From Candidatus Dojkabacteria bacterium (lineage in GTDB: Bacteria > Patescibacteriota > Dojkabacteria > GCA-002793355), in NCBI GenBank assembly GCA_030583825.1, contig CP129477.1, positions 576,308-620,490 on the forward strand: a stretch of DNA of 44,183 bases, given 5' to 3'. The position numbers and the translations under genes were made by a program. How positions within the stretch are numbered: position 1 is the first letter of the stretch; each line of letters starts with the position of its first letter. The notes under the pieces were generated by a model. It did not search any database, was not told the origin of the DNA, and worked only from the letters and a program-made list of their open reading frames with translations. This document shows positions 2,500-43,354 of this stretch, one piece after another.

Positions 2500-2597
2500 T
2501 ATTTACGGAGCAGGTAAGAGTAAAAAGCACGCAGGTTGTGGCGAATTTATGAGCGTGATAATCAACCGAGTATTTCTTTTTACGAGTAGCAGCGACG
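2500..2597 (-). repeat. Degenerate ~100-bp intergenic repeat, inverted homologue of 35370-35473
   Basis: The reverse complement shares the collinear blocks CGTCGCT, GAAATACTCGGTT, AACCTGCGTGC and GCTCCG with 35370-35468. Confidence 0.8.
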
Positions 2598-3594: not shown

Positions 3595-3610
3595 TATAGG
3601 TACAAATAAA

Positions 3611-13083: not shown

Positions 13084-13157
13084 TATTGGTGCATTAATCA
13101 CCAATAAATGCTAGAATGCTATAGATAAAAACGTTCGTTAATTATTGTCTATAGCAT
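13084..13157 (+). promoter_or_regulatory. Two inverted repeats and an extended -10 at the head of the LamG array
   Basis: TATTGGTG-N7-CACCAATA (13084-13106); TGCTAGAAT (13109-13117); ATGCTATAGA/TCTATAGCAT (13116-13125 and 13148-13157), overlapping the ATG. Confidence 0.5.
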
Positions 13158-19100: not shown

Positions 19101-19755
19101 TGTGAAAGACTTTAGTGGAAGAGGCAATCATGGAACGTTAACAAATATGGATCCTGTAACAGATTGGCTGACAGGAACAGATTGTAAACGCAATAGCTGC
19201 CTGGATTTTGATGGAACAAATGATCATATTCTTGTTGCGAATGAATCGCAGTTTGATTTTGAGCGAACAAGAGAATTCTCGGTATGCACTTGGTTTAGAC
19301 CCGATCAAATTGCTTCAACATCGCACACACTTGTAAGTAAACTGTCATCTGGAAATGTCGGATGGGAACTCACTGCATATGATGGCACAGCAGCAAGTGA
19401 CGGGATTCTTGTGTATTTAATTAACTCGTGGCCAGGAAATAGAATATCAGTTGCCTATGACAATGTTTTACAAGCGAACCAATGGCATCATATCTGCTTT
19501 GCTTACAACGGAAGTAGTGCGGCAAGCGGAGTTGCTATATATCTTAATGGAGTACTTTTAACATCACCTGTTGTGCAGATTTCTACTCTGAGCGGTAGCA
19601 TTTTGAATAATGAACCGTTGAGAATAGGATCTCGTCAAAGCAATGTTTTGCCTGCAGATGGGCGAATAGATGAAGTCAAAGTGTTTAATTACAGACTTAC
19701 GCAAGAAGATATATTAATTGACTATAACATGGGCGCTGCCCTTAGGTTCGAGTAA
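13156..19755 (+). CDS. Giant secreted DUF2341 + LamG-like jellyroll repeat protein A (2199 aa, includes a Gly-rich domain)
   Basis: Signal peptide; DUF2341 motifs W.YRQKI, DLRFTD, YWVE, IWVRVP, IYMYYGN (twice); six LamG-type modules (W.FDE...FDG..D...WHHV..YDG...IDEV..Y); ends DYNMGAALRFE. Confidence 0.9.
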   Translation: MFEGKKIYKIWQLSLSLFVVTMVFLPIFVLSLTKSVNASWFNDQWAYRQKISITGNSSAATDFQVQLSINTQTLYTAGKLQPHCEDLRFTDGEGNLLEYWVEDTVTPCFAATNQIIWVRVPSLLANGTDIYMYYGNRLAERAENPYKTFDFFDDFEYTAWYNNAWRFRIPIRINNEKLQGTLTNFPVYIDLSTLGKDFFDRVKADGTDIVVTNSDGTTKLDRELVSLNMADRTGVLWVRVPTLANSADKYVYVYFGNAAASEVNTSSVWNSNYVIMQHMENNPAGSAPQMLDSTANGNNGTSNGAMPSSALIKGKIGKALAFDGSNDYIAIPHSSSQEHQTITFSVWARSKPTTWNANGPVLSKRSVSFGTTEYIIHPDPDGRDIKVYVSTASTWRFVNNTPANIQEWNHYVGTYDGSTLRYYVNGTFVGSASAPGARNLNATPLNIGADFCNACGSRFLFGDIDEVRTMNVAASADWVAVEYNNQNDPASFYKVLPIESPEGLNAKLVRWEMSGTPQFSGSSMSLTNSAKLRTIQQFPIGKRFMTRLTQQSTSLATALAGFSNSALGSEFTADDSAFLNFDSSTTLEETGVSDEGAVSIATYGTEPTSARATIGTLVASTYFRVATGNSTATTNRPNEAMNVRFENNSAGETLTVDHVMVGNFTFAFVDSGSAGSEEKSIAPIVHWKLDETEGQIYKSSGILPGYDMMRGGTLAVENGDPANRENCVVGNCAQFNSGHAAFIDKALPAKNNATISLWMYTNRITPTIRQTILSAGEANSTGVTLVLPSQSETSANPNKLRFYVRTSTAWTFCDSTTSIIPQQWHYVTTTYAHPNVNIYINGRLDASCIIAGNYLAPTSSMALGSFNSLNQYYLNGMLDDVKIYDYVRTQQQINNEYSSFANVLGTSTDRREDGLSAWWKFEEISGTSVVDNGTGRVNGTSSGPTLGNTGIFGKSYLFDGINDTISVPATAALDTQFLTISAWINAASYDQQGNIFVKTTNGSDNTQYLLYFGNADNGYLNFRTVNASAVQDTLALDVSSSGLIPNQWNHVVAVYDGQEKAIYVNGEKKVSAPYSQTLAVNAAGISRIGSLASSYYFSGRIDELRVYNKGMSLQEVESLYRERPEPVGYFEFNERIGLTAYDNFARNPSMSFSVWKPFQWGNGVVGGSARVYDGAYISQTACTFCQVARDSFSLAFWAKVEDGASVVIPLIEKMANQGGGSELEGYTFSLLDDGGIRAGIRQDVSSSTTSITDYNTSVEYDDGQWHHFAMAIDRNSLEQKIFVDGTLIGNTSLSGFTQSIQNPGNFYIGTNSAVTDFGDFHIDSFRFYDYALTEQEVSAIKNQQVLGQSSGSGNATVSASVNISTDIIADGRTSADGEAFAVSAIDGNTITVTGTGTDGTTAATLGNAVTIGDLVLLINMQGDGTNYSNVGSYEFCRVQSVAGAVIACTAPISKVYGASSNSSLSGQKVMVQRVPEFENLTVTSSGVLTANAWNGTLGGIFAVIASGDVTVESGGSITMSAKGYTAATDWQCNFPYQGDSYTGIGIKSNVANNGGGGAGRNENCTDNWAGGAGGGGYGTSGSSGSAGSGGGTAGTGGGTYGDTQLTKLFMGSAGGTGGGDGWESSQINGQNGGSGGGIVFVQSGGNISVNAGITSNGQTRGNGDYAGAGGGAGGSIYLRANTMNIGSSLVSAVGGNGSVSGSSRGNGGNGGVGRIRLDALTVTGTSSPTPGYTGNTNQSMINSLALSTVKTQKETRITANLQGEWLFDERSGVTARDTTANGSHATFVNITDTNWVLGNIGRGISLNGVDQYATVPNASHFNSTDWTISAWVKTTQTSMGRIIVKEGNTPGQQRFSLGVNVVTLGKAEVRFDGGTFNTATSTTNVNDGKWHHVVGTFNDASNRLRIYVDGRLEQQTTTAQTPTASANDINIGRFSAAGQYLQGSIDQIRYWNTELTPRDVAMEYNQGLPFAWWRFDEGQSTIVKDFSGRGNHGTLTNMDPVTDWLTGTDCKRNSCLDFDGTNDHILVANESQFDFERTREFSVCTWFRPDQIASTSHTLVSKLSSGNVGWELTAYDGTAASDGILVYLINSWPGNRISVAYDNVLQANQWHHICFAYNGSSAASGVAIYLNGVLLTSPVVQISTLSGSILNNEPLRIGSRQSNVLPADGRIDEVKVFNYRLTQEDILIDYNMGAALRFE

Positions 19756-19814
19756 GACCTCGCTCCGGTCTGCAAAAAGAAAAAACTTTTTGCAGAACCG
19801 TCGCTCGGTTCTAA
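19753..19814 (+). repeat. 62-bp hairpin spacer element, type A
   Basis: TAA-GACC-TCGCTC-CGG-TCTGCAAAAAG-A6-CTTTTTGCAGA-A-CCG-TCGCTC-GGTTC-TAA; identical to 30189-30250. Confidence 0.92.
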
Positions 19815-19854
19815 GAGGTGAGTAAAAATGACTCACAAAGTGAAAGATAAAAAA

Positions 19855-22800
19855 ATGAAAGAACAAAGAGACATTAACAAAATTTGGAAATGGGGAGGCA
19901 TGATATTGCCTCTTATTGTCGTATTTGTACTTCTTGGGTGGGTATCACTTACAAAAAATGTAAATGCTGCCTGGTTCAATGACCTGTGGAGATTTAGGCA
20001 AAAGATCTCTATTTCTTCCGTAGTAACCATGTCGAATCAACAAATTGAGCTGATTGCGCTAGATACCCAGGCTCTCTACAATGCAGGTAAGCTCCAAGCA
20101 AACTGTGAAGATCTTCGATTTACTGATGTAGACGGAAACTTACTGCCATATTGGGTAGAAGAAAACGGTCAAACATGTGCTGCAAGTACTGCGAAGGACG
20201 TATGGATACTCATTCCTCAGGTATATACGACCGGAACAACAATTTATATGTATTACGGCAACGCAGGAGCAGAAGCTGAATCATCGGGAAAGCAGACATT
20301 TGAACTATTTGAAGATTTTAATGACGCAAACTTGCCTGGATGGTCAGTTGCAGGTAATCCAGCCGTAAGTGGTGGTTCAATCACACTCAATAGTGGAGAT
20401 AAAATTATGTCGGCCGGGCAGTTTATTGAGCATAGATTCCTTGCACGAGGAAGCCAATCATCTACAGCGCTTGACTCCGGAAGATTCGGATTTTCGAATG
20501 CCCCAATTAACTCGAACTTTAGTCTAGACGACAGTGCATTCTTTCTTTTTGATACGACAACCGGCGGTGGATTCGAATTCGGTGCCAGCAACGCTGGTGC
20601 TACAACATTGGATGCTGGCTCTGTTACAGAGACAACGTCAAATACAATATTCGACATAATTAAAGCCCCTGCAGTTGTCTCGAGTCGAGTAAATAATACC
20701 GATAATGGCGGCTTTATTTTGAGTAATATTCCAAACGCTACAATGAATGTCCGCCTTGAAAATACGGCTGCTTCTGGAACAATGACGTTTGACTGGGTTG
20801 CAATAACGAAAGCAATTTCGGTTCTTCCAACAATAGGCTTTGGTACCGAAGAAAAAGGTCGCTCGCCAATTGTGTATTTGTCATTTGATGAAGGCCAGGG
20901 ACAGGAAGTAAAATCATATGGGCCGAAGGTTTTGACAGGATATTTGGGCGGCTCAGCATCTATTCAGTCCAGTGATCCTCAGTGGCGTGATGATTGTATA
21001 AAAGGTAATTGCTTGTACTTTGATGGTACAAACGATATTCTCGATATTTCTCACGATGCAATAATGAACCTTGGAACGGGAGACTTTACAGTGAGCGTAT
21101 GGACAAAATATCCGTCGCAAGCTGGAGGAACAAATAATTATTCTGTTCTTGCAATTAAAGCATCTAATCCTAATACTCCATTCGAAGGGTTGACTATGAT
21201 GGTTGATCAACCATCTGATGGAAATATACATTTTCGAGTGAATTCCACGAATGTGTATAACTCGTCAGGTAAAACATATAACAATTATTCATGGAATCAC
21301 TTTGTGTTTATTCGTCAAGGAACACAATTAAAAATATATGTAAATGGTATTTTAATAGGAACCCAGAATATCGGGGTAGTTAATATAAGTAATACTGCGC
21401 CGCTGCGTTTTGGATCAAATCATATTGTAGCAACAAACCAGAATTATCAAGGATATGTTGATGAATTCAAGCTTTGGGATGTTGCTCTTACCGAGGCGGA
21501 AATATTACAGCAATATAATACAACAGGTCATGTTCTTGGCGCGTCAGTACCGCATTTGTATGACAAGCTTATAAGTTGGTGGAAAATGGATGAAAGTACT
21601 GCCAATAGTGCTTTTAGCGATTCTTCTGGACGGAATGTTAACGCAAGCCAAACCAGTAGTCCTGGACTGTCAACAGGGAGAATTGGAGGGGCGAGAACCT
21701 TTAATGGAACAAACCAGTTAGGAACTGTATCTTCAACGCTTTTTAATACACAGGAATTCACCATATCTTCGTGGGTATATGCGAGTACATTTGATCAAAA
21801 CGCTTCAATCTTTAGCAAGACAACGAATGGAAGCGACAATACTCAATACGCGTGCTTCTTCCAAACGACGCCATTTTCTACACCGTCAGTATTGATATTT
21901 AGAACTGTTCAAGGTTCAACACTATACGATTTATCCGTTACAGTTGCATCATCCGGGTTGCAGGTAAACCAGTGGAACCATGTTGTATGCACGTACGATG
22001 GTGAAACAAAGCAAATTTATATTAATGGCGCACTTAAAGCTCAGGAAAAAGTAAAACATACGATAAATACCGGTGGCGGCGTCGCAAGAATTGGCTCGCT
22101 AAATGGAGGATTCTTCTTAAACGGCCGATTGGACGATATGAAAATATTCGCACGCGGACTAAGTGCTCCAGAAATCGTTGCTTTGTACAATATTGACAAT
22201 ACACCAAATACTTACTGGAAGTTTGATGAAAAGTCCGGTACAACGGCATTTGATTCGTCTGTGCGTGGTTTGAACCTGGCAACTAGCGGTATGACAAATA
22301 CAAACTGGAGACTTGGAAAGAAAAGCAATGCACTCTACTTCGATGGAGTAGACGATAAAGCAACATCAGCAGCAAACACGGCAATTGATCGAACTGGAGT
22401 CATGTCTGTATCTCTTTGGGTAAATCGCGATATAGCCATAGGAACAGACGATACGATCTTTTCCAAATTTAAAGATGGATCATTCAATAAACAGTACGCA
22501 ATTACCGTAAATAACAATAAGATCAGGTTTGGAGACCAAGATGGTGGAATTGAAAGTACCACAACGATTTCTGACGATATTTGGTATCACATTGTGGGAA
22601 CATATAACGGAAATGGGGCAGCTTCGGGACTTTCACTGTATATCAATGGCGCAAAAGAAACGACCGCTAATTATGGAACTTTCAATGGAATTGAATCAGG
22701 CGCAAGTTTTGGATTGGTCGTAGGGCAAAAAGGCGATAACACTGAATACTTTGCCGGACTTGTGGACGATTTCAAAATTTGGGAGCATGAACTTTCTCTT

Positions 22801-25131
22801 GCTCAAGTGTTAAACGAGTTTTATGGCAAGCCTCAAAATGCTTCTTCGTTTGGGTCTTTCGAAAGAAAACTGACACTTTCGGCTGCAACGCCGCTTAATG
22901 ATTACCAAGTACGAATAGTTCTTAATACTGGCAATTTCGACTATTCAAAGGCAAAAAGCGATGGTGCCGATATTCGTTTTTATGATGTGACCGGTACAAA
23001 AATGAATTACTGGGTTGAATCATGGAATCCTGCGGGCAATTCGGTAGTATGGGTAAAAGTCCCCTCTGCAGGTACCTCAAGCGTCATTTTGCGCTATGGA
23101 GATGTCTCTGCAACATCGGAAAGTAGTGGTGCAGAAACATTTCTTTTCTTTACAGATCTTTCTTCTGATCCGGGACTTGCTGGCTCTAATTCTGTCGAAA
23201 GTTACGCAAATTATAATGCCGGCGGCTACATAGAGTATAGATTTAGAAGAGATGCAAACTCAGGTGTTGATAGATACTTTACTCTGCCTTCTACGACATC
23301 TGAAAATAACATTGCTATTGATTTTAGCTGGATTCGTATTTCGCAGCAGACTGGGACTTTTGGCGATGCGTTTGGATATATTGGCCTTTCCAAGAGCTCT
23401 TCAGGGAGTACTGTCCTAGGCTTTAATTACCAAACAGATACAGATTGTTGTGCAAATGCGGCATTCCGCGGAAGTGTTAATGACACGATGTATGGGTCAT
23501 ACTTGAGCTCGAATACAAGTGTATACCAAGTAACAACCGGTATTGACGGTACAACGGCAGAAACACGAGCGTATCAAAGCGGTAACCAAGTATATTCGAC
23601 AAGTGGAACTATTCCCGCAAACAGTGGTGGCTATACAAGATTTCAAATTTATCGCCAGAATTATGGTAATCCACAAGATTTTAATAATCATGTTGCGCGT
23701 ATTGACGATATTCGAGTACGAAAGTTTGTCAGTGGCAGTGGCGTTATTACTGCAACGGTTGAATCTGAAGTGGTATCTGCGCAATCTCTTAGTGTTCCTG
23801 TAGAGCTGAACGCTTCATCGCCAAAATCGGCACTATGGAAATTTGATGAGAAAACTGGAGCAACAGCAAATGATAGTAGTGGAAACAACTTAAATGCGAC
23901 ATTATTCAATACGACAAATGCAAATTGGGTGCTATCTAAAGTGGGGAATGGGCTTATACTGAATGGAACTGATCAATATGCAACGGTGCCAAATAATGTA
24001 TTACTCAATTCCGCAGATTTTACGATAAGCGCGTGGATAAAAACGACTCAAACGAGTAATGGAAGGGTCATTGTGAAAGAGTCAAATACAAACGGAAGCC
24101 AGCGATATGCTCTAGGAATAAACGTGGGGAGCGCAAATAAAGCAGAAATCCGTTTTGATGGCACTGGTGCCAATGTTGCTACAAGCACAACAGATGTAAA
24201 TGACGGTCAGTGGCACCATATTGTCGGCACATTCAGCGATACGAACAATAGACTGAGAATTTATGTTGATGGTAGATTAGAAGCACAAACAACGACATCG
24301 CAGACACCTCAAGCAAGTTCCGGTGAGCTGCAAATTGGCCGATTTGACGCTGAATTTGGGCACTACTTTAATGGTGCTATAGATAACCTAACATATTGGG
24401 GAGCTGAGTTAAGCCCACGCGATATAGCAATAGAGTATAACCAAGGATTACCGTTTTCGTGGTGGAAATTCGATGATATGCAGGGAGGAGTTGCAAGAGA
24501 TTATGGAGGCAGCGGTCTCAACGGTTCACTTACGAATATGGATCCACCAACTGACTGGCTCTCCGGAACCGATTGTAAATCAAATGGATGTCTCGACTTT
24601 GACGGTACAAATGACCGAATTGTTATACCTCATAACGCAAAATTAAGCTTTAACAGCGATTTCTCTTACTCGCTGTGGTTTTATGCTCGAAGTTTGCCTA
24701 CGGGAACGTATAGCCATCTCTTACGCAAAACAAATGGTGACGTAATGAACTATTCTTTGGCTGCAACAAGCTTATGGGGTGGTGATCCTGCAATTCAGTC
24801 GCTGGACTTTACTGTTCACGATGGCAGTTATCGCTCGGTACGGTGCCAAAATGTGGTGCAAGCAGGGCGTTGGTACCATGCGGCATTTCGGTTTATACGG
24901 AGCACGAATACAGTCGAGTTATACGTAAATGGTGCCCTATGTGGGCAGAGAACAGATGTGACTGGGAATTTGACTCAAAATACACAACCGCTCACCATTG
25001 GGTCAAAAAGTGCAGAAGCGACTACGTTTTGGAATGGTCAGATTGACGAAGTAAAGTTTTGGAACTATTCGCTGACGCCGGAAGATATAAAAAGGGACTA
25101 TAACTTAGGTGCTGCATTACGGTTTGAATAA
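19855..25131 (+). CDS. Giant secreted DUF2341 + LamG repeat protein B (internal second DUF2341)
   Basis: Same scaffold as A with five LamG modules; internal DUF2341 (DGADIRFYD..YWVESWN..VWVKVP); ends DYNLGAALRFE. Start chosen by homology to C and D; ATG 19828 with a GAGG SD is an alternative. Confidence 0.9.
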   Translation: MKEQRDINKIWKWGGMILPLIVVFVLLGWVSLTKNVNAAWFNDLWRFRQKISISSVVTMSNQQIELIALDTQALYNAGKLQANCEDLRFTDVDGNLLPYWVEENGQTCAASTAKDVWILIPQVYTTGTTIYMYYGNAGAEAESSGKQTFELFEDFNDANLPGWSVAGNPAVSGGSITLNSGDKIMSAGQFIEHRFLARGSQSSTALDSGRFGFSNAPINSNFSLDDSAFFLFDTTTGGGFEFGASNAGATTLDAGSVTETTSNTIFDIIKAPAVVSSRVNNTDNGGFILSNIPNATMNVRLENTAASGTMTFDWVAITKAISVLPTIGFGTEEKGRSPIVYLSFDEGQGQEVKSYGPKVLTGYLGGSASIQSSDPQWRDDCIKGNCLYFDGTNDILDISHDAIMNLGTGDFTVSVWTKYPSQAGGTNNYSVLAIKASNPNTPFEGLTMMVDQPSDGNIHFRVNSTNVYNSSGKTYNNYSWNHFVFIRQGTQLKIYVNGILIGTQNIGVVNISNTAPLRFGSNHIVATNQNYQGYVDEFKLWDVALTEAEILQQYNTTGHVLGASVPHLYDKLISWWKMDESTANSAFSDSSGRNVNASQTSSPGLSTGRIGGARTFNGTNQLGTVSSTLFNTQEFTISSWVYASTFDQNASIFSKTTNGSDNTQYACFFQTTPFSTPSVLIFRTVQGSTLYDLSVTVASSGLQVNQWNHVVCTYDGETKQIYINGALKAQEKVKHTINTGGGVARIGSLNGGFFLNGRLDDMKIFARGLSAPEIVALYNIDNTPNTYWKFDEKSGTTAFDSSVRGLNLATSGMTNTNWRLGKKSNALYFDGVDDKATSAANTAIDRTGVMSVSLWVNRDIAIGTDDTIFSKFKDGSFNKQYAITVNNNKIRFGDQDGGIESTTTISDDIWYHIVGTYNGNGAASGLSLYINGAKETTANYGTFNGIESGASFGLVVGQKGDNTEYFAGLVDDFKIWEHELSLAQVLNEFYGKPQNASSFGSFERKLTLSAATPLNDYQVRIVLNTGNFDYSKAKSDGADIRFYDVTGTKMNYWVESWNPAGNSVVWVKVPSAGTSSVILRYGDVSATSESSGAETFLFFTDLSSDPGLAGSNSVESYANYNAGGYIEYRFRRDANSGVDRYFTLPSTTSENNIAIDFSWIRISQQTGTFGDAFGYIGLSKSSSGSTVLGFNYQTDTDCCANAAFRGSVNDTMYGSYLSSNTSVYQVTTGIDGTTAETRAYQSGNQVYSTSGTIPANSGGYTRFQIYRQNYGNPQDFNNHVARIDDIRVRKFVSGSGVITATVESEVVSAQSLSVPVELNASSPKSALWKFDEKTGATANDSSGNNLNATLFNTTNANWVLSKVGNGLILNGTDQYATVPNNVLLNSADFTISAWIKTTQTSNGRVIVKESNTNGSQRYALGINVGSANKAEIRFDGTGANVATSTTDVNDGQWHHIVGTFSDTNNRLRIYVDGRLEAQTTTSQTPQASSGELQIGRFDAEFGHYFNGAIDNLTYWGAELSPRDIAIEYNQGLPFSWWKFDDMQGGVARDYGGSGLNGSLTNMDPPTDWLSGTDCKSNGCLDFDGTNDRIVIPHNAKLSFNSDFSYSLWFYARSLPTGTYSHLLRKTNGDVMNYSLAATSLWGGDPAIQSLDFTVHDGSYRSVRCQNVVQAGRWYHAAFRFIRSTNTVELYVNGALCGQRTDVTGNLTQNTQPLTIGSKSAEATTFWNGQIDEVKFWNYSLTPEDIKRDYNLGAALRFE

Positions 25132-25190
25132 CACGTCGCTCGACTTCTCAAAACGAGAAAACGTTTTGAGAAAGTCTCGCTCCGTATTAA
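25129..25190 (+). repeat. 62-bp hairpin spacer element, type B
   Basis: TAA-CACG-TCGCTC-GAC-TTCTCAAAACG-AGAAAA-CGTTTTGAGAA-A-GTC-TCGCTC-CGTAT-TAA; same geometry as type A with compensatory stem changes. Confidence 0.9.
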
Positions 25191-25226
25191 AAACGTGGGA
25201 AATAACCCACAAAGTGAAAGTAACAA

Positions 25227-28200
25227 ATGAAAGGACAAATAAACATTAACAAAATTTGGAAATGGTTAGGGCAGATTCTTCCTGTTTCGCTATTCTTTGT
25301 TCTTCTTGGATGGGTATCATTTACGAAAAGTGTAAATGCTTCCTGGTTTAACGAATTGTGGAGATACCGTCAACGAGTGGCTTTAGGATCGGTAACAACA
25401 GAATTAAGTGGTTACCAGGTTCAGTTAACAGGTATTAATACGCAATCGCTCTACAATGCTGGAAAAATCAAAGCAAACTGTGAAGACTTACGCTTCACTG
25501 ACAATGAAGGAAAGCTACTTGAATACTGGATAGAAGACGACGGCACAACCTGCCAAAATGATACGTCAACCGACGTGTGGGTAAAGACAACTCGGTTAGC
25601 TATCGGTGGTACAGCAATTTACATGTATTACGGAAATCCGGGAGCGGAGGCGTATCAAAGTCCTCACAATACATTTGAATTCTTCGATGGTTTTGATTCT
25701 GCGACACTTGACTCTTCTATCTGGGCAAGCTCCCAAGATCCGGCAATATCTTCAGGAAAATTACTTCTCAATAATGACAAAGCAGTACGCTCGTATGCTA
25801 CATTCGCTGCAAATTCACGCATTATCGTAAGAGCAAGCCAGCAAAGCACTGGTTTACGCAATGGATATCTTGGGTTTTCAAATGCAGTGTTGAGTAGCTC
25901 GTATATCGCTGATGACGCTATGGCCTATCAGTTTGACTCATCAACTGGTGGAAACTTCGAAGTCGTGTTTGGAAACGAAGGAACGACTTCTACGGATACA
26001 TTGTTACTACCTGAAAATTCATCAGATAATGAGTTTGAAATTGGCTGGTTGTCTAGCAGAATTGATTTCTTTGCTAACAATGATCTTCATACTTCGACAT
26101 CATCGGCCACCCATATTGCGGATGAGTCACTCAATATTCGTATGGAAAACTCTTCTGCAACAGAGACTTTATCTATTGATTGGGTAGCTGTCGCAAAATA
26201 TGCGGCGTCTTTGCCGGCAACAACAAGCTTTGGCACTGAAGAAAAAGGCAATGGGCCGGTTGTGTATCTTGATTTCGACGAGAGTGCAGGAACAACAGCA
26301 TTTGATAAATCTGGAAGTGGAAACAACGGAACATTGGTTAATGACCCATCAAGAGTATCCGATTGTATAAAAGGTAACTGCTTAAACTTCGACGGAACTA
26401 ACGATTTAGTGACAGTTGCTAATAATCCAAGCTTTAATTTTGGATCTGGGTGGACAATTTCTGCATGGGTGAATCCGGCGACGTCACAGACAACAAGCCC
26501 GACAATTTTTAGATACGGAACAAGCGCATCTTCTGAAGTTTTTATTCTTGATGCTCCATCTGGATTATGGAGAGTTGCTGCAAGAAATACTTCAAATGTT
26601 GCAACAATCATGTCCACAAGTGAGCCTATGGTTCCGAATAAATGGGTATATGTAGTAGCAACATTCAACGGCTCGACGCTAAGCCTTTGGCTTGATGGCA
26701 AACTTATTGCAACTCAGGCATTTTCAGGGACACCAAAAACAATTGGAAATACTACAATTGCGATAGGAAACTCTCCAGAGAACAGTAATGCGCTGCTTCG
26801 ATACCGAGGTCAGATTGATGAAGTGAAAATCTACGATAGAGCATTGTCACAATCGGATATTTATAAGGAATTCAGTCTTTATCACAATGTGCTGGGAGCC
26901 TCTGCGAACATTCAGCGCGATGGGCTTGCGGCGTGGTGGAAAATGGATGAAGCATTGTGGAATGGAACATCTGGAGAAGTAATTGATTCATCGCTAAATG
27001 GAAATAATGGATCACGAGGTGGAAATGTTACAACTTCGGGAGGCACTTTAGGAAATGCCGGCATCTTCGATGGCAATGATGACTATGTTGTAACATCGTA
27101 CATGTTGCCGACAAATAACGGAACAATGGCTGCATGGCTTTCAACAACTGCTCCAGCAACAACTCAGGTTGTGATTGGCCAGGAATCCTTAACTGCTGCA
27201 ACAGAAAATGGAATAAAAATCGTAACGTCTAAAATCCAGTGCCAAAAGAGAACAGCGACAGATACAATTTTGCTCACTTCTGCAACAACAGTTGTTGCAA
27301 ATACCTGGTATCACGCAGTATGTACATATTCTTCGGTAGATGGGGTAAAGCTTTATGTGAATGGCGTGCTCGAGGCGCAGTCTACGGACAAAGCGAACCT
27401 TACAGCTAACGGAACCTTTAGGTTCCACATTGGGGCGCATAGACATTCGGGTGGTTATGTAAGCGACTTTTCTGGAAAAATAGACGATGTTCGTATTTAC
27501 ACACGCGCAATTTCCGGCGAAGAAGCAAAAGATATATATACATTCACTCCTCCATCAACAGGAACATGGAAATTCGACGAAACTATCGGCACATCCTTCG
27601 CAGATACATCTTTGTCACAATTTACAGGAACACTTACTAATACAGTTGATTCTGACTGGACGACAGGAAAGATTGGCAATGCTATACGGTTTGATGGCAG
27701 TACTTCTTATGGAACAGTTACGCATGACGTAAAGCATAACATTCTTGCAGGAGGATCTTTTACTATCTCTGCATGGGTAAAAACGAATGGAACAATTTCT
27801 GCCGTGCAACATATTGTTGGAAAAGGCGGTAGTAGCGCAGGTGGAGTAGGCTATAACCTTTACTTTACTGCTGCTGGAAACATCGCCTGTGGTATTGATG
27901 ACGACGCGACTTCATTCCCCGAAGATGTCGCAACCTCTGCGTCTGACTATGACGACAGCAACTGGCACTTTGTTATCTGTACCAAAACTCAAGCACGCTT
28001 GGAGGTCTACGTAGATGGCCTTCTTGCTGGGGCAGATACGTCTTTATCGTCTACAGGCTCGCTCGCAAATACAGAAAACTTACGCTTTGGAGGTCAGGGA
28101 ACATCATACTTTAACGGCATTTTGGATGAAGTAAATCTCTACACGCATGCAATGCCGTACGAAACAATTCAACGAATGTATTCTCAACAAAGACCAACAT

Positions 28201-30191
28201 ACGGTGTATTAAGTACAAACGGGTTGGTAGGCTATTGGAAATTTGATGAAACTTCTGGCACTGCTGTGACAGATGGCTCAGGGTTGGGAAATCATGGAAC
28301 TGCCGTTAATGGTGCAAGTATTACGTCGGGAATAAGTGGAAATGCTCGCGACTTTAGCGGTTCGAGCCAATATATTTCGTTCTCTTCGCCAAGCGGTATC
28401 CCTCTTGGGGGATCGCAATATTCCATTTCAGCTTGGTTCTGGGCAGACTCAGGTGGATCTCGTGGAATCGTCGGGTGGGGGAACTTTGGAGCAAGTAATC
28501 AAGTAAATGCCTTACGACTTGATGAAACTTGTTGTTTCAGACATTACTGGTGGGGAAATGACTTGGATGTAAATGTAGGTTCAACGACGGGAAAATGGAA
28601 TCATGTTGTGGTCACTTACGACGGTGCAACTCGCCGGTTATATTTTAATGGAGCACAGGCCGGTTCTCTTAATTCATCGTCAATTAATGTCCCTCATGCG
28701 AATAACTTGCGTATTGGTTCTACTAATAACGGAGAGTTTTTTGACGGAAGGATTGACGAATTAAGCATATGGAATAGGCCACTCTCTGCGGGAGAAATTA
28801 GCTTACTGTACAACATGCAGTCAGTATCTTCGATTGCAGAAGGAAGTAATAAAACACTTTCTGTAACGACAGAAGTGCAGTCAAAAGGTTCAGTAATGCA
28901 GCTGCTCTTTGACCATAAATCGGGGGCAGTTGCGTCTGATTCCTCTGGAAATAATTATGCCGGAACACTTCAAAATATGAGTGCTTCCAGTTGGGTTAAA
29001 GGATATCTGGGGTCAGCGCTTAGCTTTGATGGTGATAATGACTATGTCTCATTTGCTAATTCTTCGGTTGCAAATGTGACAGGAAGTACGATGACTATCT
29101 CGTTTTGGTTATATCCAAAAACATTTGCTCATCAAAATACAATTATTCATAAAGATCAGCAGTATTCGTTTAATATTGATACTTCAGGAAACGTTGCGTG
29201 GGCAGAAAGCTCGAATTTCAGTTACTCAAACTTCGGATACAGCAATATTGGTCTTGTAACAAATCAGTGGCAGCATGTCATGTTAGTGAAAAATGGATCA
29301 AATATAAAGATATATCGAAACGGTATTCTCCGCGCAGAAAAAACTTTTGGTGGAAACCTTTCTTCAACAGGAAATATTCTTGCGGTTGGATGTTACTTTT
29401 ATAGCGGTGTTTGTGACAATATTGTTGACCAAAACTTTGAGGGAATGCTCGATACACTAAAAATATGGAATACTGCTCTCAGTCCACGAGACGCGGCAAT
29501 AGAATATAATGCAGGAATGCCTATTGGTTACTGGAAATTTGATCGTGGCGAAGGGAACATTGCGCACGATTATAGTGGCAATGCATTTCATGGAACACTT
29601 ATGAACATGGATCCTGCGAATGACTGGCTTGCTGCTTCTAATTGTAAATTTAACGCATGTCTGGATTTTGACGGCAGTAATGACTATATTTCAGTTCCTG
29701 ATGACAATGCTCTCGACTTTACGTCAACAATGAGTATTTCTATGTGGATATATCAGCGTAGTGCTATCGCTAATGGTTACAGAATTGTAGACAAAGGAAC
29801 TGCTGGGTTAGACAATGGGTTAAACTTTGATACGTATAATGGCGTTAATGGCAGAGGATTACGTTTATGTGGCGCTGGCGGATGTTATACAGCAAGCGGG
29901 CAACGGGAATTAAATCGTTGGTATCATGTTGCTTTGGTATTTAACAATGGCACTTTACAGTTTTATATAGATGGAAAACTTGATACTTCAACAACGACAA
30001 CCAATCCGGTTTTGTTTACAAATAATTTAGATTTGAGAATTGGTGCCGCGCATGTGGGCTGTTCCGGAGCCTGTGGAAACACAGAATATTTTAATGGAAG
30101 GATGGATGATGTCAGAATTTATAGCTATCCTCTGACAGAAAATGATATTAAAAGAGATTATAACTTAGGTGCTGCGTTGCGTTTCGAATAA
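25227..30191 (+). CDS. Giant secreted DUF2341 + LamG repeat protein C (1654 aa)
   Basis: Signal peptide, DUF2341, six LamG modules; ends DYNLGAALRFE. Confidence 0.9.
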   Translation: MKGQININKIWKWLGQILPVSLFFVLLGWVSFTKSVNASWFNELWRYRQRVALGSVTTELSGYQVQLTGINTQSLYNAGKIKANCEDLRFTDNEGKLLEYWIEDDGTTCQNDTSTDVWVKTTRLAIGGTAIYMYYGNPGAEAYQSPHNTFEFFDGFDSATLDSSIWASSQDPAISSGKLLLNNDKAVRSYATFAANSRIIVRASQQSTGLRNGYLGFSNAVLSSSYIADDAMAYQFDSSTGGNFEVVFGNEGTTSTDTLLLPENSSDNEFEIGWLSSRIDFFANNDLHTSTSSATHIADESLNIRMENSSATETLSIDWVAVAKYAASLPATTSFGTEEKGNGPVVYLDFDESAGTTAFDKSGSGNNGTLVNDPSRVSDCIKGNCLNFDGTNDLVTVANNPSFNFGSGWTISAWVNPATSQTTSPTIFRYGTSASSEVFILDAPSGLWRVAARNTSNVATIMSTSEPMVPNKWVYVVATFNGSTLSLWLDGKLIATQAFSGTPKTIGNTTIAIGNSPENSNALLRYRGQIDEVKIYDRALSQSDIYKEFSLYHNVLGASANIQRDGLAAWWKMDEALWNGTSGEVIDSSLNGNNGSRGGNVTTSGGTLGNAGIFDGNDDYVVTSYMLPTNNGTMAAWLSTTAPATTQVVIGQESLTAATENGIKIVTSKIQCQKRTATDTILLTSATTVVANTWYHAVCTYSSVDGVKLYVNGVLEAQSTDKANLTANGTFRFHIGAHRHSGGYVSDFSGKIDDVRIYTRAISGEEAKDIYTFTPPSTGTWKFDETIGTSFADTSLSQFTGTLTNTVDSDWTTGKIGNAIRFDGSTSYGTVTHDVKHNILAGGSFTISAWVKTNGTISAVQHIVGKGGSSAGGVGYNLYFTAAGNIACGIDDDATSFPEDVATSASDYDDSNWHFVICTKTQARLEVYVDGLLAGADTSLSSTGSLANTENLRFGGQGTSYFNGILDEVNLYTHAMPYETIQRMYSQQRPTYGVLSTNGLVGYWKFDETSGTAVTDGSGLGNHGTAVNGASITSGISGNARDFSGSSQYISFSSPSGIPLGGSQYSISAWFWADSGGSRGIVGWGNFGASNQVNALRLDETCCFRHYWWGNDLDVNVGSTTGKWNHVVVTYDGATRRLYFNGAQAGSLNSSSINVPHANNLRIGSTNNGEFFDGRIDELSIWNRPLSAGEISLLYNMQSVSSIAEGSNKTLSVTTEVQSKGSVMQLLFDHKSGAVASDSSGNNYAGTLQNMSASSWVKGYLGSALSFDGDNDYVSFANSSVANVTGSTMTISFWLYPKTFAHQNTIIHKDQQYSFNIDTSGNVAWAESSNFSYSNFGYSNIGLVTNQWQHVMLVKNGSNIKIYRNGILRAEKTFGGNLSSTGNILAVGCYFYSGVCDNIVDQNFEGMLDTLKIWNTALSPRDAAIEYNAGMPIGYWKFDRGEGNIAHDYSGNAFHGTLMNMDPANDWLAASNCKFNACLDFDGSNDYISVPDDNALDFTSTMSISMWIYQRSAIANGYRIVDKGTAGLDNGLNFDTYNGVNGRGLRLCGAGGCYTASGQRELNRWYHVALVFNNGTLQFYIDGKLDTSTTTTNPVLFTNNLDLRIGAAHVGCSGACGNTEYFNGRMDDVRIYSYPLTENDIKRDYNLGAALRFE

Positions 30192-30250
30192 GACCTCGCT
30201 CCGGTCTGCAAAAAGAAAAAACTTTTTGCAGAACCGTCGCTCGGTTCTAA
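30189..30250 (+). repeat. 62-bp hairpin spacer element, type A (second copy)
   Basis: Base-for-base identical to 19753-19814. Confidence 0.92.
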
Positions 30251-30285
30251 AACGTGGGAAATAACCCACAAAGTGAAAGTAAAAA

Positions 30286-33200: not shown

Positions 33201-35367
33201 AAAACAAATAAATAGTGTCAGTTACGCGAATAAGTCTCTTGCAAACGCAAATACATTCACTATTGGAAGAGGGTACGCATATCCAAGCGCTCTTGTAACA
33301 ACCTACTTTGACGGCAAAATAGACGACTTTAAAGTGTATAACTATGCAATGTCAGCAGTGGATATTCTTGCAGACTATTCAAATGACGCCTCACTTTCTT
33401 CATCTGAAACCGGGCTGATACGACATTATCAAATGGAAGAATTAGGTTGGAATGGAACAACCGGCGAAGTAATAGACTCTTCTGGCTATTCAAACCATGG
33501 AACAGCGATGAATGGGGCAACAACTTCGACAATGAGCAAAATCGGTCTTCGTGCGGGGCAACTTGATGGCAACAATGACTGGATTAATATTGGAGATCCA
33601 GGAAGTGATGTGCAAACCATTGCGTTCTGGTTCAATACATCAAATGCTGCAACCGATAAAAGACTACTTAGTGCAACAAATGGAGGGACAGGTAAATTTT
33701 CGTTGAGATTTTCAAGTAATACATTACAAGCATGGGATGGAGGGGTATGGAGAACTATTTCCACAGCATTTGTTACAACAGGAACTTGGTATCACGTAGC
33801 TCTTGTATTTGGTGAAGGGGGAAATGGTGTTACAACCTATATCAATGGTGTACAAGACGGAAGTAGTAGCGCAACATTTAACAATTTTAGCGCAAATTTT
33901 GGTCTTGGAGTTATTTTTCAAGGCTCACATGGAGGATATTATAGTGGCTATATCGATGACTTTCGGTTTTATACCGAACCAGTGGATACAGCTACAATTA
34001 CGAGGCTTTCAAGTAATGATCCAAGCGCAGCACAAAGGCTTTTTGCCGGATCTGAAATAAAAGCTCCTACTGCTTTAATTCATTTGAAAATGGATGAAAA
34101 ATCTGGAACAACAGCAATAAACAATGGCACTATGCTTTCAAGTGGAAATGCCACATTAAATAATTTCAGCTCTACTCCGTGGAGATTCGGAAAAATCGGA
34201 AATTCATTACTTTTTGACGGAACAGACGACTTTGTTTCAACGCCAGATCATGCGAGTTTTGTGTGGGGAAATGCTGTTACTGTATCTACGTGGTTTAAAA
34301 CAGGAAGTATTACGACTGCGAAATCTCTTGTTGCGAAAACGGGAGAATCTTCGGGAATGGAATTTCATCTTAGTCTTGAAACTGACGGTCGTGTCAGGTG
34401 TTGGGTATCTAATAACGGTACAGCTTCAGGTACTTTTGCGTATAGTAGAGCAGTAAATTACACCGACAATACGTGGCATTTTGCATCCTGCGTATATAAT
34501 GGCTCAACGCTCCAGGTGCAGGTTGATGGGCATACAGGAACGGCAGTTGCTAGAACTGGGGCTATATTTAATGGCACGCAGCCCTTAACAATCGGGGGCA
34601 ATACAGCATGGACTGGTGCCAACTGGATGTTTAATGGTCAAATAGATAATGTAAAAATCTGGAATTCTGCGCTTTCTATTCGAGATATCATGGTTGAATA
34701 TAACCAAGGAAGGCCGTTACATTGGTGGAACTTTGATAGTGGCGAAGGAACTGTTTCTTACGATATTGCCAGTAAAATTAATGGAACGATGACTAACTTT
34801 ACTCCATCAACTGCATGGAGAAGTGGAGCAGACTGCAAGCTAAATAAATGCTTGCAATTCGATGGAATAAACGATTACATAACCACTCCTCCGATATATA
34901 TTGGCACAGAATATACTATATCTGGCTGGTTTAAAACGAGTGCTGCACATGCCGGGGGAGGAGATATCTTTGCACTTACAAGTTCTGGTTCTCTCCATGG
35001 AGTCCTTATTGAAATGACTGGCGGAGAGGTTCGATTTTTGCATAGAATGCCCACGGGAAACATCGGTGGCCCGAACATTTTTTCACCATTAACAAACTAT
35101 AATAATGGTCAGTGGCATCACTTTGTGGCAACAGGGCAAGGAAGCGGAGCAATGAATCTATATCTAGATGGACGGTTGGTCGGAACAAATACGACGGGTG
35201 CACCTTTTATGCAGACATTATTTTTGACAATGGGAAGACTTTCTCAGACCTCGGACACTCGCTACTTTAATGGAATGATAGATGAAATCAAGGTATTCCC
35301 GTACGCCTTTAATGAAACTGATGTGAAAGTGGATTATAACTTGGGGGCTGCGTTACGATTTGAATAA
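30286..35367 (+). CDS. Giant secreted DUF2341 + LamG repeat protein D (1693 aa)
   Basis: Signal peptide, DUF2341, six LamG modules; ends DYNLGAALRFE. Confidence 0.9.
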   Translation: MKDRISINKIWKWIGVSLPLFVVFILLGWASFTKNVNAVWFNDLWQYRQKVTLGTVTTELVGYQVQLTGINTQALYNAGKLQANCEDLRFTDIDGKLLEYWVEDKGVTCQNSTSTDIWVKTTRLAVGGTTLYMYYGNSTASSYQSARKTFDFFEDFNGVTLDSTVWTNSGSPSLSSGRLQLLNDQAIRSFAEFSANTRIIMRASQPSTALNTAIMGLSNTVLASPFNTDDSLGFNFDSTTGSNFEVMLSNDGTTATNNTSLAENTADNEFELGWAPSTITYFINNTSRGSSSVSGNIANEPVNIRIQNSSATDTFSVDWVGIAKYASSLPATVSFDTEEKGRSPIVYLSFDEGQGQEVRSTAGKGLIGYLGGSASVEAADPVWRDDCIKGNCLYFDGTNDILDIAHDAIMNLGTGDFTVSMWAKYPSQVGGTFNYSMLVTKASNPNPPYEGLTVFVDEPTNANLQFRVNSANALSTTVGGLNNYEWKHFIFRRQGTELRVYVNGKSIASGTVASININNTAPLRFGSNHIVTTSQNYQGYIDEFKLWNVALTEAEILQQYNSTSTVIGESKKPQINGQVAWWKMDEALWNGTSGEVKDAGGLGMNGTSTGSAAVGVGKYGNGGSLNGSTAYVNVADNSYLDRNDIGLSLWVNRAVSTGFHGIIAKDTNAVWNGQTNYQLLFTNGGAPGTTANGALELRWETSGGGKVVANTQGVAFNSTNTWYHIAANRWQMPSGEYAASLFVNGVEQVLSCYFDPGSGWVQYECNKIPGTVVHNNGNFQIGRYGGGQYFNGRIDEVRVFSRALNAEEAQTLTQYLPSVIQHWKFDERTGNTAKTSAIGGVDTTLTNMENTDWVTGVRGNALTFDGVDEYASAGNLVSSALRQFTFSWWVNVNSFTNANYMSLFCQAEGVYPSSLNNFCFYAGNGASAFGLQGKWSDGTALDARTNIPFGTSTWKMITVTYDGTTLRQYVDGKQINSVSYANKSLANANTFTIGRGYAYPSALVTTYFDGKIDDFKVYNYAMSAVDILADYSNDASLSSSETGLIRHYQMEELGWNGTTGEVIDSSGYSNHGTAMNGATTSTMSKIGLRAGQLDGNNDWINIGDPGSDVQTIAFWFNTSNAATDKRLLSATNGGTGKFSLRFSSNTLQAWDGGVWRTISTAFVTTGTWYHVALVFGEGGNGVTTYINGVQDGSSSATFNNFSANFGLGVIFQGSHGGYYSGYIDDFRFYTEPVDTATITRLSSNDPSAAQRLFAGSEIKAPTALIHLKMDEKSGTTAINNGTMLSSGNATLNNFSSTPWRFGKIGNSLLFDGTDDFVSTPDHASFVWGNAVTVSTWFKTGSITTAKSLVAKTGESSGMEFHLSLETDGRVRCWVSNNGTASGTFAYSRAVNYTDNTWHFASCVYNGSTLQVQVDGHTGTAVARTGAIFNGTQPLTIGGNTAWTGANWMFNGQIDNVKIWNSALSIRDIMVEYNQGRPLHWWNFDSGEGTVSYDIASKINGTMTNFTPSTAWRSGADCKLNKCLQFDGINDYITTPPIYIGTEYTISGWFKTSAAHAGGGDIFALTSSGSLHGVLIEMTGGEVRFLHRMPTGNIGGPNIFSPLTNYNNGQWHHFVATGQGSGAMNLYLDGRLVGTNTTGAPFMQTLFLTMGRLSQTSDTRYFNGMIDEIKVFPYAFNETDVKVDYNLGAALRFE

Positions 35368-35523
35368 TGCGTCGCTTGTAATTCGTGAAAGGAAATACTC
35401 GGTTCTAAACGCAAAATATTCAATGAAGTTTGCTAAACCTGCGTGCCTTTCACTCATTACTCGCTCCGCATAAGAAACGTATCTCATGTCTTGGGTTTCG
35501 TCTCACCTTCGCTCCGCATTAAC
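35365..35523 (+). repeat. Composite TCGCTC-family repeat cluster after gene D
   Basis: TAA-TGCG-TCGCTT ... TCGCTCCGCAT (35461 and 35509); outer arms TAATGCG/CGCATTA are complementary; homologous to 2500-2597 and 36715-36732. Confidence 0.75.
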
Positions 35524-35641: not shown

Positions 35642-36640
35642 ATGGATATGACAATAAATAACAACGACAAACCTCTTAACCGATTGCAGTATGCAGGGTC
35701 GGAGACGCCCGTATTTCCTCAGGGTTTCCCTCAGCAGACAGAAAGCAATAACAATATTCCGTCGGTACAAAGTCAGTCCGTTCCTAATTCTGCTCCACAA
35801 ACAAGCGCAGAACCTATAAATCAAGTGCTTCAAGATATGCAAAATCAATCTATTCCAAATCAAATGCCATTACAGCAGCAGCCTATGACAACAGCATCTG
35901 TAACAGGTAAGCCAAATGCAGCAAGCGTAAACAAACCAAACATGACCATGATTGTTGCAGGAATTCTTTTTGCAGGCTTAGCAACAGGATTCGCAGGCAT
36001 GAGCTATATGTATTTGCAGGAAAGAGCAAAAACAGCAGGCCAGGAGTCAGTTCTTGGAACAAAAGAACAGCGAGAATATACAGAAATTATGAGTGAAATT
36101 CGTGGGTTAGTTAACCTTCCAGAAGATGAGAAAATCAATATCGCAAGAATTGATAATCCAGACACATTAAAGCAACAGAATCCAGAATTTTATATGAATG
36201 CACAAGTAGGTCACTATCTTGCAGTTATGCCATCAAGCCAGAGAGTATTGATTTACGACAGATCAGCAAAGAAAATTGTAAACTTTTCGTCATACTCAAT
36301 TCGTGTTGAACTTATTCCTGAAAAAGAGATTCCTGAAACGGAAAAGCCATTGAAAATTGAAATTCGTGCGACATCGTTTGCAGATGCAGAAAAAGTAAAA
36401 ACTTTGGAGTCAGCATTGAAGTCAGCAAGCAAATTCTACGATGTGACACAGGTCAAAAACTCCGATGTGAATAAAGAATTTAAAGGAATGCAGGTTGTTC
36501 TTTTGAACAGAAATGCAAAGCCAAAACTTTCACAGAATATTGTTGCTCACATTGGTTCTAACAATGTCGTCGAGAAAATGCCAGAAGGAGAAACTCCATC
36601 AACCGCAGATGTTGTGGTAATTGTTGGAAAACTGAACTAA
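35642..36640 (+). CDS. Membrane protein with C-terminal LytR_C-like domain
   Basis: Gln/Pro-rich N-terminus; one TM; LVNLPEDEKINIARIDNPDTLK...FYMNAQ.G segment; C-terminal KIEIR...PEGETPSTADVVVIVGK. Confidence 0.72.
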   Translation: MDMTINNNDKPLNRLQYAGSETPVFPQGFPQQTESNNNIPSVQSQSVPNSAPQTSAEPINQVLQDMQNQSIPNQMPLQQQPMTTASVTGKPNAASVNKPNMTMIVAGILFAGLATGFAGMSYMYLQERAKTAGQESVLGTKEQREYTEIMSEIRGLVNLPEDEKINIARIDNPDTLKQQNPEFYMNAQVGHYLAVMPSSQRVLIYDRSAKKIVNFSSYSIRVELIPEKEIPETEKPLKIEIRATSFADAEKVKTLESALKSASKFYDVTQVKNSDVNKEFKGMQVVLLNRNAKPKLSQNIVAHIGSNNVVEKMPEGETPSTADVVVIVGKLN

Positions 36641-36803
36641 GGCGTAGCTCAGGTTCGTCTCAATGTCCAAAGGTTTGAAGACACATACGTCCTACAAACA
36701 CTTTGGGATTTCGCCTCACCTTCGCTCCGCATAAAACTATTCTCGCTTGGGATATCTTCAAATTCTCTTCATGCTATCAATTGCTCACCTTTTCTCCGCA
36801 ATA
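36638..36803 (+). repeat. TCGCTC-family repeat cluster after the LytR_C gene
   Basis: TAA-GGCG-TAGCTC-AGGT...ACCT-TCGCTC-CGC; 18-bp CTCACCTTCGCTCCGCAT identical to 35502-35519; degenerate third copy at 36784-36800. Confidence 0.75.
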
Positions 36804-37212: not shown

Positions 37213-40342
<3,130 letters not shown>

Positions 40343-43237: not shown

Positions 43238-43354
43238 TGCTTGGTGATTAGAGCGGGGTAGACCCACCTGATTCCATTTCGAACTCAGAAGTGAAATATC
43301 CCAGCGTCGAAGATACTTAGATTTTCTCTGGGGAAAATAGATCATCGCCAAGCA
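43238..43354 (+). rRNA. rrf: 5S rRNA
   Basis: Helix I TGCTTGGTGAT/ATCGCCAAGCA, CACCTGATTCCATTTCGAACTCAGAAGTGAA, about 117 nt, followed by a T-tract. Confidence 0.95.

Follow-up and report, generated by a model that had tools for sequence, protein, structure and literature searches.

Hairpin repeats on the stop codons of a LamG paralog array in a Dojkabacteria genome, a candidate REP/BIME-like family of 3'-end elements

The stretch of DNA analyzed here, called the window below, covers 44,183 nucleotides (nt) from a Candidatus Dojkabacteria bacterium (GenBank assembly GCA_030583825.1, contig CP129477.1) in which the genome is one single contig of 1,090,595 bp with 39.8% G+C; the window spans its bases 576308-620490. 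It contains four tandem paralogous genes of 5-6.6 kb for large proteins with LamG-type domains (Table 1). Three spacers of this array carry hairpin units that begin on the stop codon of the upstream gene and end 13-36 nt before the next start codon. A promoter scan listed no promoter-like site in the array spacers. A fifth, shorter paralog elsewhere in the genome has the same end (...LGAALRFE-TAA) without a unit.

The three array units (A1, B, and A2) were assigned to a class that we call H. A1 is made up of the stop codon TAA, GACC, TCGCTC, a 14-bp stem with a bulged A and an AAAAAA loop, a second TCGCTC, GGTTC, and TAA. The initial annotation of this DNA had described a single geometry for the three spacers, and we found it in all of them: TAA-N4-TCGCTC-3 bp-11 bp stem-6 nt loop-stem-bulged A-3 bp-TCGCTC-N5-TAA. 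The bracket TCGCTC-N35-TCGCTC was located at 19760-19806, 25136-25182, and 30196-30242, and a looser fourth match at 35461-35514. The bracket pattern thus had four matches in the window against 0.09 expected, and four were reached in none of 100 shuffles.

Our comparison of A with B also agreed with the covariation described before: 7 of the 14 stem pairs differ, every one of them is compensated, and the outer helix covaries too (ACC/GGT versus ACG/CGT). A four-sequence alignment had 97.3% of its cells paired and 9 of 19 pairs changed on both sides, which was equalled in none of 500 shuffles, and slid registers gave 0-2 such pairs; these figures rest on three distinct sequences and are descriptive, not a probability. 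The H units fold far more stably than shuffled sequences on both strands (z from -4.5 to -7.0, 0/200 shuffles as stable), and the stem energy is -21 to -25 kcal/mol per 63-nt unit. The reported absence of a U-tract was borne out, with no T-run 3' of the three hairpins and none of them listed by the terminator scan; the H units therefore do not have the G+C-rich hairpin plus U-tract of a canonical intrinsic terminator.

We then scanned the genome itself with a covariance model of the units and with a perfect-stem search, the kind of scan that had been suggested for these hairpins. It returned a fourth strong H copy, C, which lies outside the window and behind an unrelated gene. C reads TAA-ACG-TCGCTT-GA-13 bp stem-AAAAAA-stem-C-TCGCTC-CGTAT. 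Its lower stem is new with respect to A and B, but it keeps the 41-nt TCGCTY-to-TCGCTC register, the AAAAAA loop, and the ACG/CGT outer helix. The top stem common to C and A/B is CAAAANG/CN'TTTTG, in which N covaries as A-T, C-G, and T-A. Two degenerate H copies scored 28 and 25 bits; one stands about 85 nt beyond the end of an open reading frame (ORF) and one directly after the transfer RNA (tRNA) gene for Tyr.

The constant part of the family is a base module, formed by the TCGCTC direct repeats and a covarying outer 3-bp helix, which encloses three further kinds of palindromic insert besides H. Among intergenic TCGCTY...TC[GA]CTC pairs 20-130 nt apart, 10/31 had three of three Watson-Crick outer pairs, versus 0/29 in coding sequence. 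When 60 permutations of the hexamer were compared, TCGCTC alone gave such brackets (7, versus 0 for each of the other 59). Allowing one mismatch gave 22 matches, namely 13 accepted family members, three tRNA genes, and six uncertain cases. The two TCGCTC copies lie 41 to 108 nt apart and are always flanked by complementary triplets, which vary (ACG/CGT, ACC/GGT, GCG/CGC, ACA/TGT) even between the two units of class G. Several minimum-energy folds also pair the stop codon, at the base of the unit. The second TAA belongs to a TTAA that pairs with this stop codon, and base pairing is thus also an explanation for the TAA...TAA flanks.

The H insert is a 35-nt perfect hairpin (units A, B, and C). 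The T insert, of about 85 nt, has an A-tract, a conserved helix AGTACTCGGTT/AACCTGCGTGC with a variable tip, and a T-run. There are 14 T copies (nhmmer, E<1e-4), and nine exact matches to the T pattern; the A-tract and the U-tract are visible in their alignment, and by sequence the class looks like an A-tract/hairpin/U-tract terminator. The G insert, 75 nt long, is found behind polA and behind a VirD4-like gene, and class M is exemplified by 36638-36734 in the window. Both G and M inserts hold a second, nested bracket, TCGYCTC. The genome contains about four strong H units and about 25-30 units over all classes (Table 1).

Two other gene ends in the window had been said to show the register TAA-N4-T(C/A)GCT(C/T). 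The register is present at both: TAA TGCG TCGCTT at 35365-35377 behind gene D, and TAA GGCG TAGCTC at 36638-36650 behind the ORF at 35642-36640. The label LytR_C given to that ORF was not recovered, as it matched no Pfam family at E<=0.001 and no NCBIfam model. T units also contain small ORFs on their bottom strand; these were considered as genes and rejected, since the frame is not kept from copy to copy.

Table 1. Positions of the repeat units and of the genes they follow (window coordinates unless marked as genome coordinates).
Feature	Position	Strand	Description
H-class unit A1	19753..19814	+	Between paralog genes 2 and 3; covariance model R1 91.3 bits
H-class unit B	25129..25190	+	Geometry of A; outer pair ACG/CGT; R1 89 bits
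H-class unit A2	30189..30250	+	62/62 identical to A1, flanks diverged; R1 93.6 bits
H-class unit C	genome 425060-424996	-	Directly behind an unrelated gene for a class-II tRNA synthetase of Asp/Asn type, past its stop; R1 70.2 bits
Four tandem paralogous genes	13156-19755, 19828-25131, 25227-30191, 30286-35367	+	1654-2199 aa, DUF2341 and 5-6 LamG-type domains; units sit on the stop codons
Second small hairpin GTGGG-AAATAA-CCCAC	25195..25210	+	5' leader of gene 4; CTCGGTTCTAAA(A)CG / AAATAACCCA in common with the T-class 5' half
T-class unit after gene D	35365..35473	+	TAA TGCG TCGCTT, long hairpin GTGAAAGG..TACTCGGTT..AACCTGCGTGCCTTTCAC, TCGCTC CGC ATAA; base module of H type, terminator-like insert
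Further repeat module with a third TCGCTC at its end	35474..35520	+	GGGTTTCGTCTCACCT-TCGCTC-CGCAT; copies at several other loci
M-class unit after the 332-aa ORF	36638..36734	+	TAA GGCG TAGCTC, insert with nested TCGTCTC/TCGCCTC bracket, TCGCTC CGC ATAA
T-class copy	2503..2588	-	Downstream of a CHASE-domain gene (2626-3642, minus) and in its sense

The units are tied to gene ends. TCGCT stood 3-6 nt past the stop codon in 14 of 901 ORFs (a crude longest-ORF call of at least 100 aa), and other offsets up to 55 nt had about one case per offset. Ten of the 13 accepted units start at the stop codon (3-6 nt after it) in the sense of the gene, and the TCGCTC strand is the sense strand of the messenger RNA (mRNA) in 10/13. 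The T copies were co-oriented with the upstream gene in 12/14 cases, no more than 20 nt from its stop in 10/14, and next to a convergent neighbour in 9/14; terminators that close transcription units should be arranged in this way. No shared function unites the upstream genes (ParB-like, adenylate cyclase, aminoacyl-tRNA synthetase, VirD4-like, Pol I, MreB, LamG). Canonical A-tract/stem/U-tract terminators are found at other places in the genome, which means that terminators here do not as a rule lack the U-tract.

The idea that the hairpins are structure-defined elements tied to stop codons was thus upheld, in the form of a dispersed family whose members are discrete and copyable. A1 and A2 are identical at 62/62 positions from TAA to TAA, whereas the preceding 150 coding bases agree at 93/150; the following 43 bases agree at 33/43. 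The A2 spacer is A1-like on its left side and B-like on its right side. The two G units, behind unrelated genes, are identical at 98/105 positions within flanks at background level (91/150 and 64/100). By these alignments, copying of the units takes place in discrete blocks. The 3' flank of A (CTCGGTTCTAAA(A)CG ... AAATAACCCA) shows homology to T units in their 5' half, and the spacers can therefore be described as mosaics of a shared intergenic vocabulary, like the bacterial interspersed mosaic elements (BIMEs) built from types of repetitive extragenic palindromic (REP) sequences. The small hairpin of the gene 4 leader recurs at 30254-30269, before gene 5.

Outside the source genome the family was not recovered. 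In 150 genomes of the class, model R1 matched nowhere over its full length, with stem-only partial matches at E of 0.001-0.07, and the T-class pattern had no match in 220 other genomes of the class. The exact H pattern, searched in one genome per species of 185,579 species, had one chance non-hairpin match (L051) outside the source genome, and it had no match in a metagenome contig collection. No unit was present in the regions downstream of polA in nine relatives of the same family (54-66% protein identity). The source genome is the sole member of its genus among the species genomes searched, and genomes of the class measure 0.4-2.3 Mb.

One family relative (G001, locus L073) has a long A+T-rich imperfect palindrome of unrelated sequence 3 nt past its polA stop. 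Stop-anchored palindromes may be a wider habit in the family, with rapid turnover of sequence.

Several enzymes of mobile elements were searched for in the genome by protein family. The suggested RAYT/Y1 HUH gene was not found (PF01797, 0 matches in the genome; the control was positive in 6/14 reference genomes). As for a recombination-type tyrosine recombinase, the only tyrosine recombinases of the genome are two Xer-like PF00589 proteins, which score 55 and 76 bits on the integron integrase model TIGR02249 (cut-off 265) and match XerC/XerD models best. There were no matches in the genome to TnpB (PF07282), one of the two enzymes (with the Y1 protein TnpA) of which the palindromic elements derived from IS200/IS605 (PATE) call for at least one, nor to reverse transcriptase (PF00078), called for by the target-site hairpin of a diversity-generating retroelement. 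Models of rve, the only DDE-type model run, and of the IS110 transposase had 0 matches each. A kink-turn or box C/D reading of the G.A brackets was rejected, with neither L7Ae nor a Nop domain in the genome. RNase III is encoded (an rnc homologue); its cleavage takes place in a helix of about 20 bp, and the unit offers about 3-7 + 2 + 14 bp.

Which strand acts is a separate question. The proposal that the bottom strand, which carries GAGCGA, folds into a bulged hairpin with tandem G.A pairs around two G-C pairs was sound as to folding: in ViennaRNA it is 4-17 kcal/mol better than the sense strand in 11/11 units. In the T class the two strands prefer different registers, with 151 Watson-Crick, 49 GU, and 6 AC pairs in the sense register and 168, 20, and 2 in the antisense register. 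GC skew makes the TCGCTC strand the template of lagging-strand synthesis in 9/11 units, a count that is confounded with gene orientation. A bottom-strand DNA substrate is disfavoured because of the gene-sense orientation, the polar anchoring of TCGCTC to the stop, the lagging-template strand, and the lack of a partner enzyme, and we lean to the sense RNA as the acting strand.

The explanation that we prefer, at a probability of about one half, is a lineage-specific REP/BIME-like repeat family whose members would act in the sense RNA as stop-codon-embedded 3'-end hairpins. We infer this RNA-level action, and each mechanistic step, from the anatomy, the covariation, and the placement of the units. 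In the common base module, the upstream stop codon is drawn into the short covarying outer helix at the foot of the unit. Above it, the two direct TCGCTC copies lie opposite one another in a 6x6 internal loop, symmetric and with two G-C pairs at its centre, and an exchangeable insert (H, T, G, or M) sits on top. The units would thus be 3'-end elements of the sense transcript, flush with the end of the ORF. T units would terminate transcription. At H units, which have no U-tract, transcription would run on into the next paralog, and the hairpin could serve the upstream cistron as a stable 3' barrier against exonucleases; it might also be a processing site for an endonuclease (e.g., RNase III) acting in the bracket loop, or a partial attenuator. 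A double function of this kind, stabilising and attenuating, has been shown for the REPs of Escherichia coli. A ribosome on the stop codon would have opened the outer helix together with the 5' bracket, and it would stand against the 14-bp stem, still intact, about 10 nt downstream. Within the LamG array, the units were possibly inherited with the tandem duplications and re-copied later as discrete 62-nt units, as with A1 and A2.

Several observations weigh against an action in the sense RNA. The sense-strand bracket is a weak pyrimidine-pyrimidine loop (U.C, C.U), and the better folding of the opposite strand is odd if the sense RNA alone matters. The strong H copy C sits between convergent genes, outside any operon, and one T/M composite is inverted between co-directional genes. 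Confinement to a single genome among those searched fits a recent selfish repeat equally well. With regard to processing, the 16S and 23S stems, which are classic RNase III substrates, have no bracket (judged by eye).

A bolder version of the same explanation is a modular 3'-end system, previously undescribed, in which a constant base module, whose loop forms tandem sheared G.A pairs on the complementary strand, would be read by a factor, the inserts would choose between termination and read-through with processing, and the unit would be copied between gene ends without a recognisable transposase. We regard this version as rather unlikely.

The main rival is a selfish non-autonomous DNA repeat, such as a miniature inverted-repeat transposable element (MITE) or another palindromic insertion, tolerated past stop codons, with the hairpin and the bracket reflecting the mechanism of insertion. 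It would account for the sharp unit boundaries of the A1/A2 and G pairs and for the restriction to one genome, and the TAA...TAA flanks of 5/11 units resemble a 3-bp target duplication; the downstream TAA is, on the other hand, also explained by the pairing of TTAA with the stop codon. None of the transposase families searched for (Y1-HUH, TnpB, IS110, rve, reverse transcriptase) had a match, and random tolerated insertion is not expected to put 10/13 units 3-6 nt past a stop in gene sense. Moreover, near-identical copies differ in their outer helix by compensated changes (ACA/TGT versus ACG/CGT), a sign of selection on pairing. We consider a selfish repeat improbable.

Less probable still is a non-canonical, U-less, and possibly factor-dependent terminator or attenuator between the paralogs, by which expression would decrease along the array. 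The strong stem directly past each stop and the resemblance of the sister T class to true terminators speak for it, and REP325 of E. coli is reported to act as a partly Rho-dependent terminator (bioRxiv 10.64898/2026.03.23.713779). The H units lack a T-run in a genome that uses canonical terminators elsewhere. Because the next start is close and no promoter-like site lies in the spacers, full termination would silence genes 3-5.

The initial annotation had favored a different model, in which the purine-rich bottom strand folds as single-stranded DNA into a recombinase substrate, attC-like or REP/RAYT-like, so that the genes are excisable cassettes. The better folding and the tandem G.A geometry of the bottom strand in 11/11 units agree with this model, and so do the extrahelical base conserved in A and B and the discreteness of the units. 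Against it, neither an HUH gene nor an integron integrase was found beside the two Xer-like recombinases, and the brackets are direct repeats, unlike the core sites of attC, which are inverted. In 9/11 units it is the TCGCTC strand, not the GAGCGA strand, that should be single-stranded at the replication fork. The genes are 5-6.6 kb tandem paralogs. DNA of the source organism is present in sludge and bioreactor metagenomes of eight studies, and the predicted excision or reordering was not seen in DNA contigs, since those of two other studies were identical across the region and bridged A1 and B in the reference order. The sole joint, 19812->25190 in one contig (side 28), is letter for letter the A2 spacer and was rejected as a mapping artefact. 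On the RNA side, no RNA run was listed for this DNA and one metatranscriptome gave no coverage; a further data set, probably DNA of a relative, does not reach the spacers. The cassette model failed on these counts, and we judge it very unlikely. A duplex-DNA operator, in which the palindrome binds a dimeric regulator of the next paralog, would suit a perfect inverted repeat upstream of each next gene, but it can practically be set aside, as arm sequences change with complementarity kept (7/14 pairs), copies also stand at convergent gene ends, and variable TCGCTC spacing with constant complementary triplets makes sense in a folded single strand only.

Returning to the sense-RNA explanation, the closest known relatives are the REP/BIME elements of E. 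coli. Like the units, these are dispersed imperfect palindromes of about 35-40 nt in 3' untranslated and intercistronic regions, many of them no more than 15 nt from a stop codon (PMC12306157), and several sequence types are combined into mosaics. The roles documented for them are to stabilise the upstream mRNA, to terminate partially, and to stall ribosomes (PMC12306157; bioRxiv 10.64898/2026.03.23.713779). REPs that lie within 15 nt of a stop are reported to stall ribosomes, and a sizeable share of all REPs is this close (PMC12306157); for REP325, within an operon, partial termination and stabilisation of the upstream message have been reported together (bioRxiv 10.64898/2026.03.23.713779).

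The units resemble REP and REPIN sequences in part, being dispersed, extragenic, and at 3' ends. They differ in having no GTAG-type head, the conserved part being the TCGCTC direct repeat, in the lack of a RAYT gene, and in number, with 4 strong and 2 degenerate H copies among the 25-30 or so units. To our knowledge, REPs have no bracket of direct repeats combined with a covarying outer helix into which the stop codon is drawn.

The RNase III hairpins of the phage T7 type are intercistronic, contain an internal loop, lack a U-tract, and protect the upstream message by the 3' hairpin that they leave on it. The lower helix of our units is shorter, 3-7 bp, the ribosomal RNA (rRNA) processing stems of this genome have no bracket, and cleavage is here a proposal. 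Integron attC sites likewise follow directly on a gene stop, are imperfect palindromes with an extrahelical base, and conserve structure over sequence. Their consensus core sites, RYYYAAC ... GTTRRRY, are inverted (R''/R'), unlike the direct TCGCTC ... TCGCTC repeats, IntI is absent here, and integron cassettes are short, promoterless, and unrelated to one another, whereas the array genes are long paralogs.

The T class is comparable to the repeat-type intrinsic terminators formed by inverted uptake sequences in Neisseria and Haemophilus, as it places a U-tract hairpin of conserved sequence at gene ends 14 times; it differs in sequence, in the added bracket module, and in having no known link to DNA uptake. 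TIGR-Tas arrays occur in small bacteria that live as parasites and belong to the candidate phyla radiation (CPR) and consist of variable palindromes between short conserved motifs, with periods of 35-41 nt (PMC12045711). They are tandem, lie beside a Tas gene with a Nop domain, and hold two 8-12-nt spacers in the loop (PMC12045711), in contrast to the 6-nt loops of units dispersed at stops. We rejected this reading on the difference in architecture and on the lack of a Nop-domain protein (PF01798, 0 matches in the genome), though divergent Tas Nop domains could escape the Pfam model. We take the units for a variant of the REP/BIME kind, not for a system of recombination cassettes, and their interest lies mainly in the stop-embedded bracket module, the exchangeable inserts, and copying without a recognisable transposase. 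A narrow literature search found no description of such units in small-genome bacteria, which is not proof of absence.

Two further loci of the genome use the same sequence vocabulary. At 638603-638812 (L039), a T unit and a GGGATTTCGCCTCACCT-TCGCTC module are inverted between co-directional mreB and the next gene, and a TATAAT box 6 nt before the next ATG suggests a leaderless or very-short-leader start beside the unit. At 356634-356788 (minus strand, L037), four TCGCTC copies stand in a row after an adenylate-cyclase gene, with spacings of 78, 35, and 36 nt; the 29-30-nt intervals are alike (TNTTT..AGNGTGC.TTTT) and form a small degenerate tandem array.

Other models matched by the LamG paralogs are Toxin_R_bind_N, Pentaxin, and Sialidase N-terminal, all of them concanavalin-like lectin folds. 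Judged by sequence, these matches look like a shared fold in surface adhesin-like proteins and not like a toxin. A promoter inside the unit (TTGCAG-N16-TAAAAC) was rejected as weak, with 7/12 consensus matches and no listing by the scan. Read-through of the stop codons between paralogs was rejected as well, as the in-frame extension closes after about 21-33 codons without gene fusion.

The rRNA genes of the window are unlinked, with the 16S end at 1-1050, 23S at 37218-40339, and 5S at 43240-43353; 2181-2414 is a tRNA stretch after 16S. About 35 kb, including the LamG array, lie between the 16S-tRNA-tRNA group and 23S, and a GH18-domain gene (41224-43200, minus strand) separates 23S from 5S. 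The 23S match measures 3122 nt against a model of 2925 positions, and insertions are possible. Rfam at the gathering threshold had rRNA and tRNA matches only over the whole window, with no unit matched, and eight related loci searched at E<=1 returned only tRNAs and chance-level matches. Two large ORFs have no Pfam family at E<=0.001, one at 7862-12964 (1700 aa) and one at 3611-6556 (minus, 981 aa). The first is also blank in NCBIfam and lies directly upstream of the LamG array, without a unit after its end.

A second repeat family was observed downstream of four tRNA genes (Ala, Lys, Leu, and Thr; loci L068-L071) at genome positions 521060-521190, 626975-627105, and 909705-909840 on the plus strand and 943745-943640 on the minus strand. 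The unit, of about 110-130 nt, follows a canonical terminator and consists of GGGNNNCG, AAGCTGARTGA, a covarying 10-bp hairpin, GARYGAAGAAGGGGTCGAGGAG ... GCGAGGTGAC, and CGNNNCCC. Its end is a copy of the 3' end of its own upstream tRNA (about 18 nt for tRNA-Lys), and direct GARYGA repeats, of tandem G.A geometry in the tRNA sense, stand on either side of its hairpin. The four loci had no Rfam match. Possible identities of the unit are a miniature element that integrated in the T-loop and a small RNA linked to the tRNA.

REP-type families have been studied mainly in large proteobacterial genomes, where their spread is explained by the RAYT transposase. Here, a 1.09-Mb genome with no detectable transposase holds about 25-30 structured units on one base module that incorporates the stop codon, and how such units are copied becomes a question in view of A1 and A2, with their sharply bounded identity over 62 nt between flanks that have diverged. 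The design of the bracket, two facing direct hexamers between covarying helices, sometimes nested, is a concrete and testable recognition motif for RNA or DNA. Should message stability, termination, or processing be governed by the units, this organism, with its few regulators, would have in them a compact way of tuning the expression of a giant surface-protein paralog array and of housekeeping genes.

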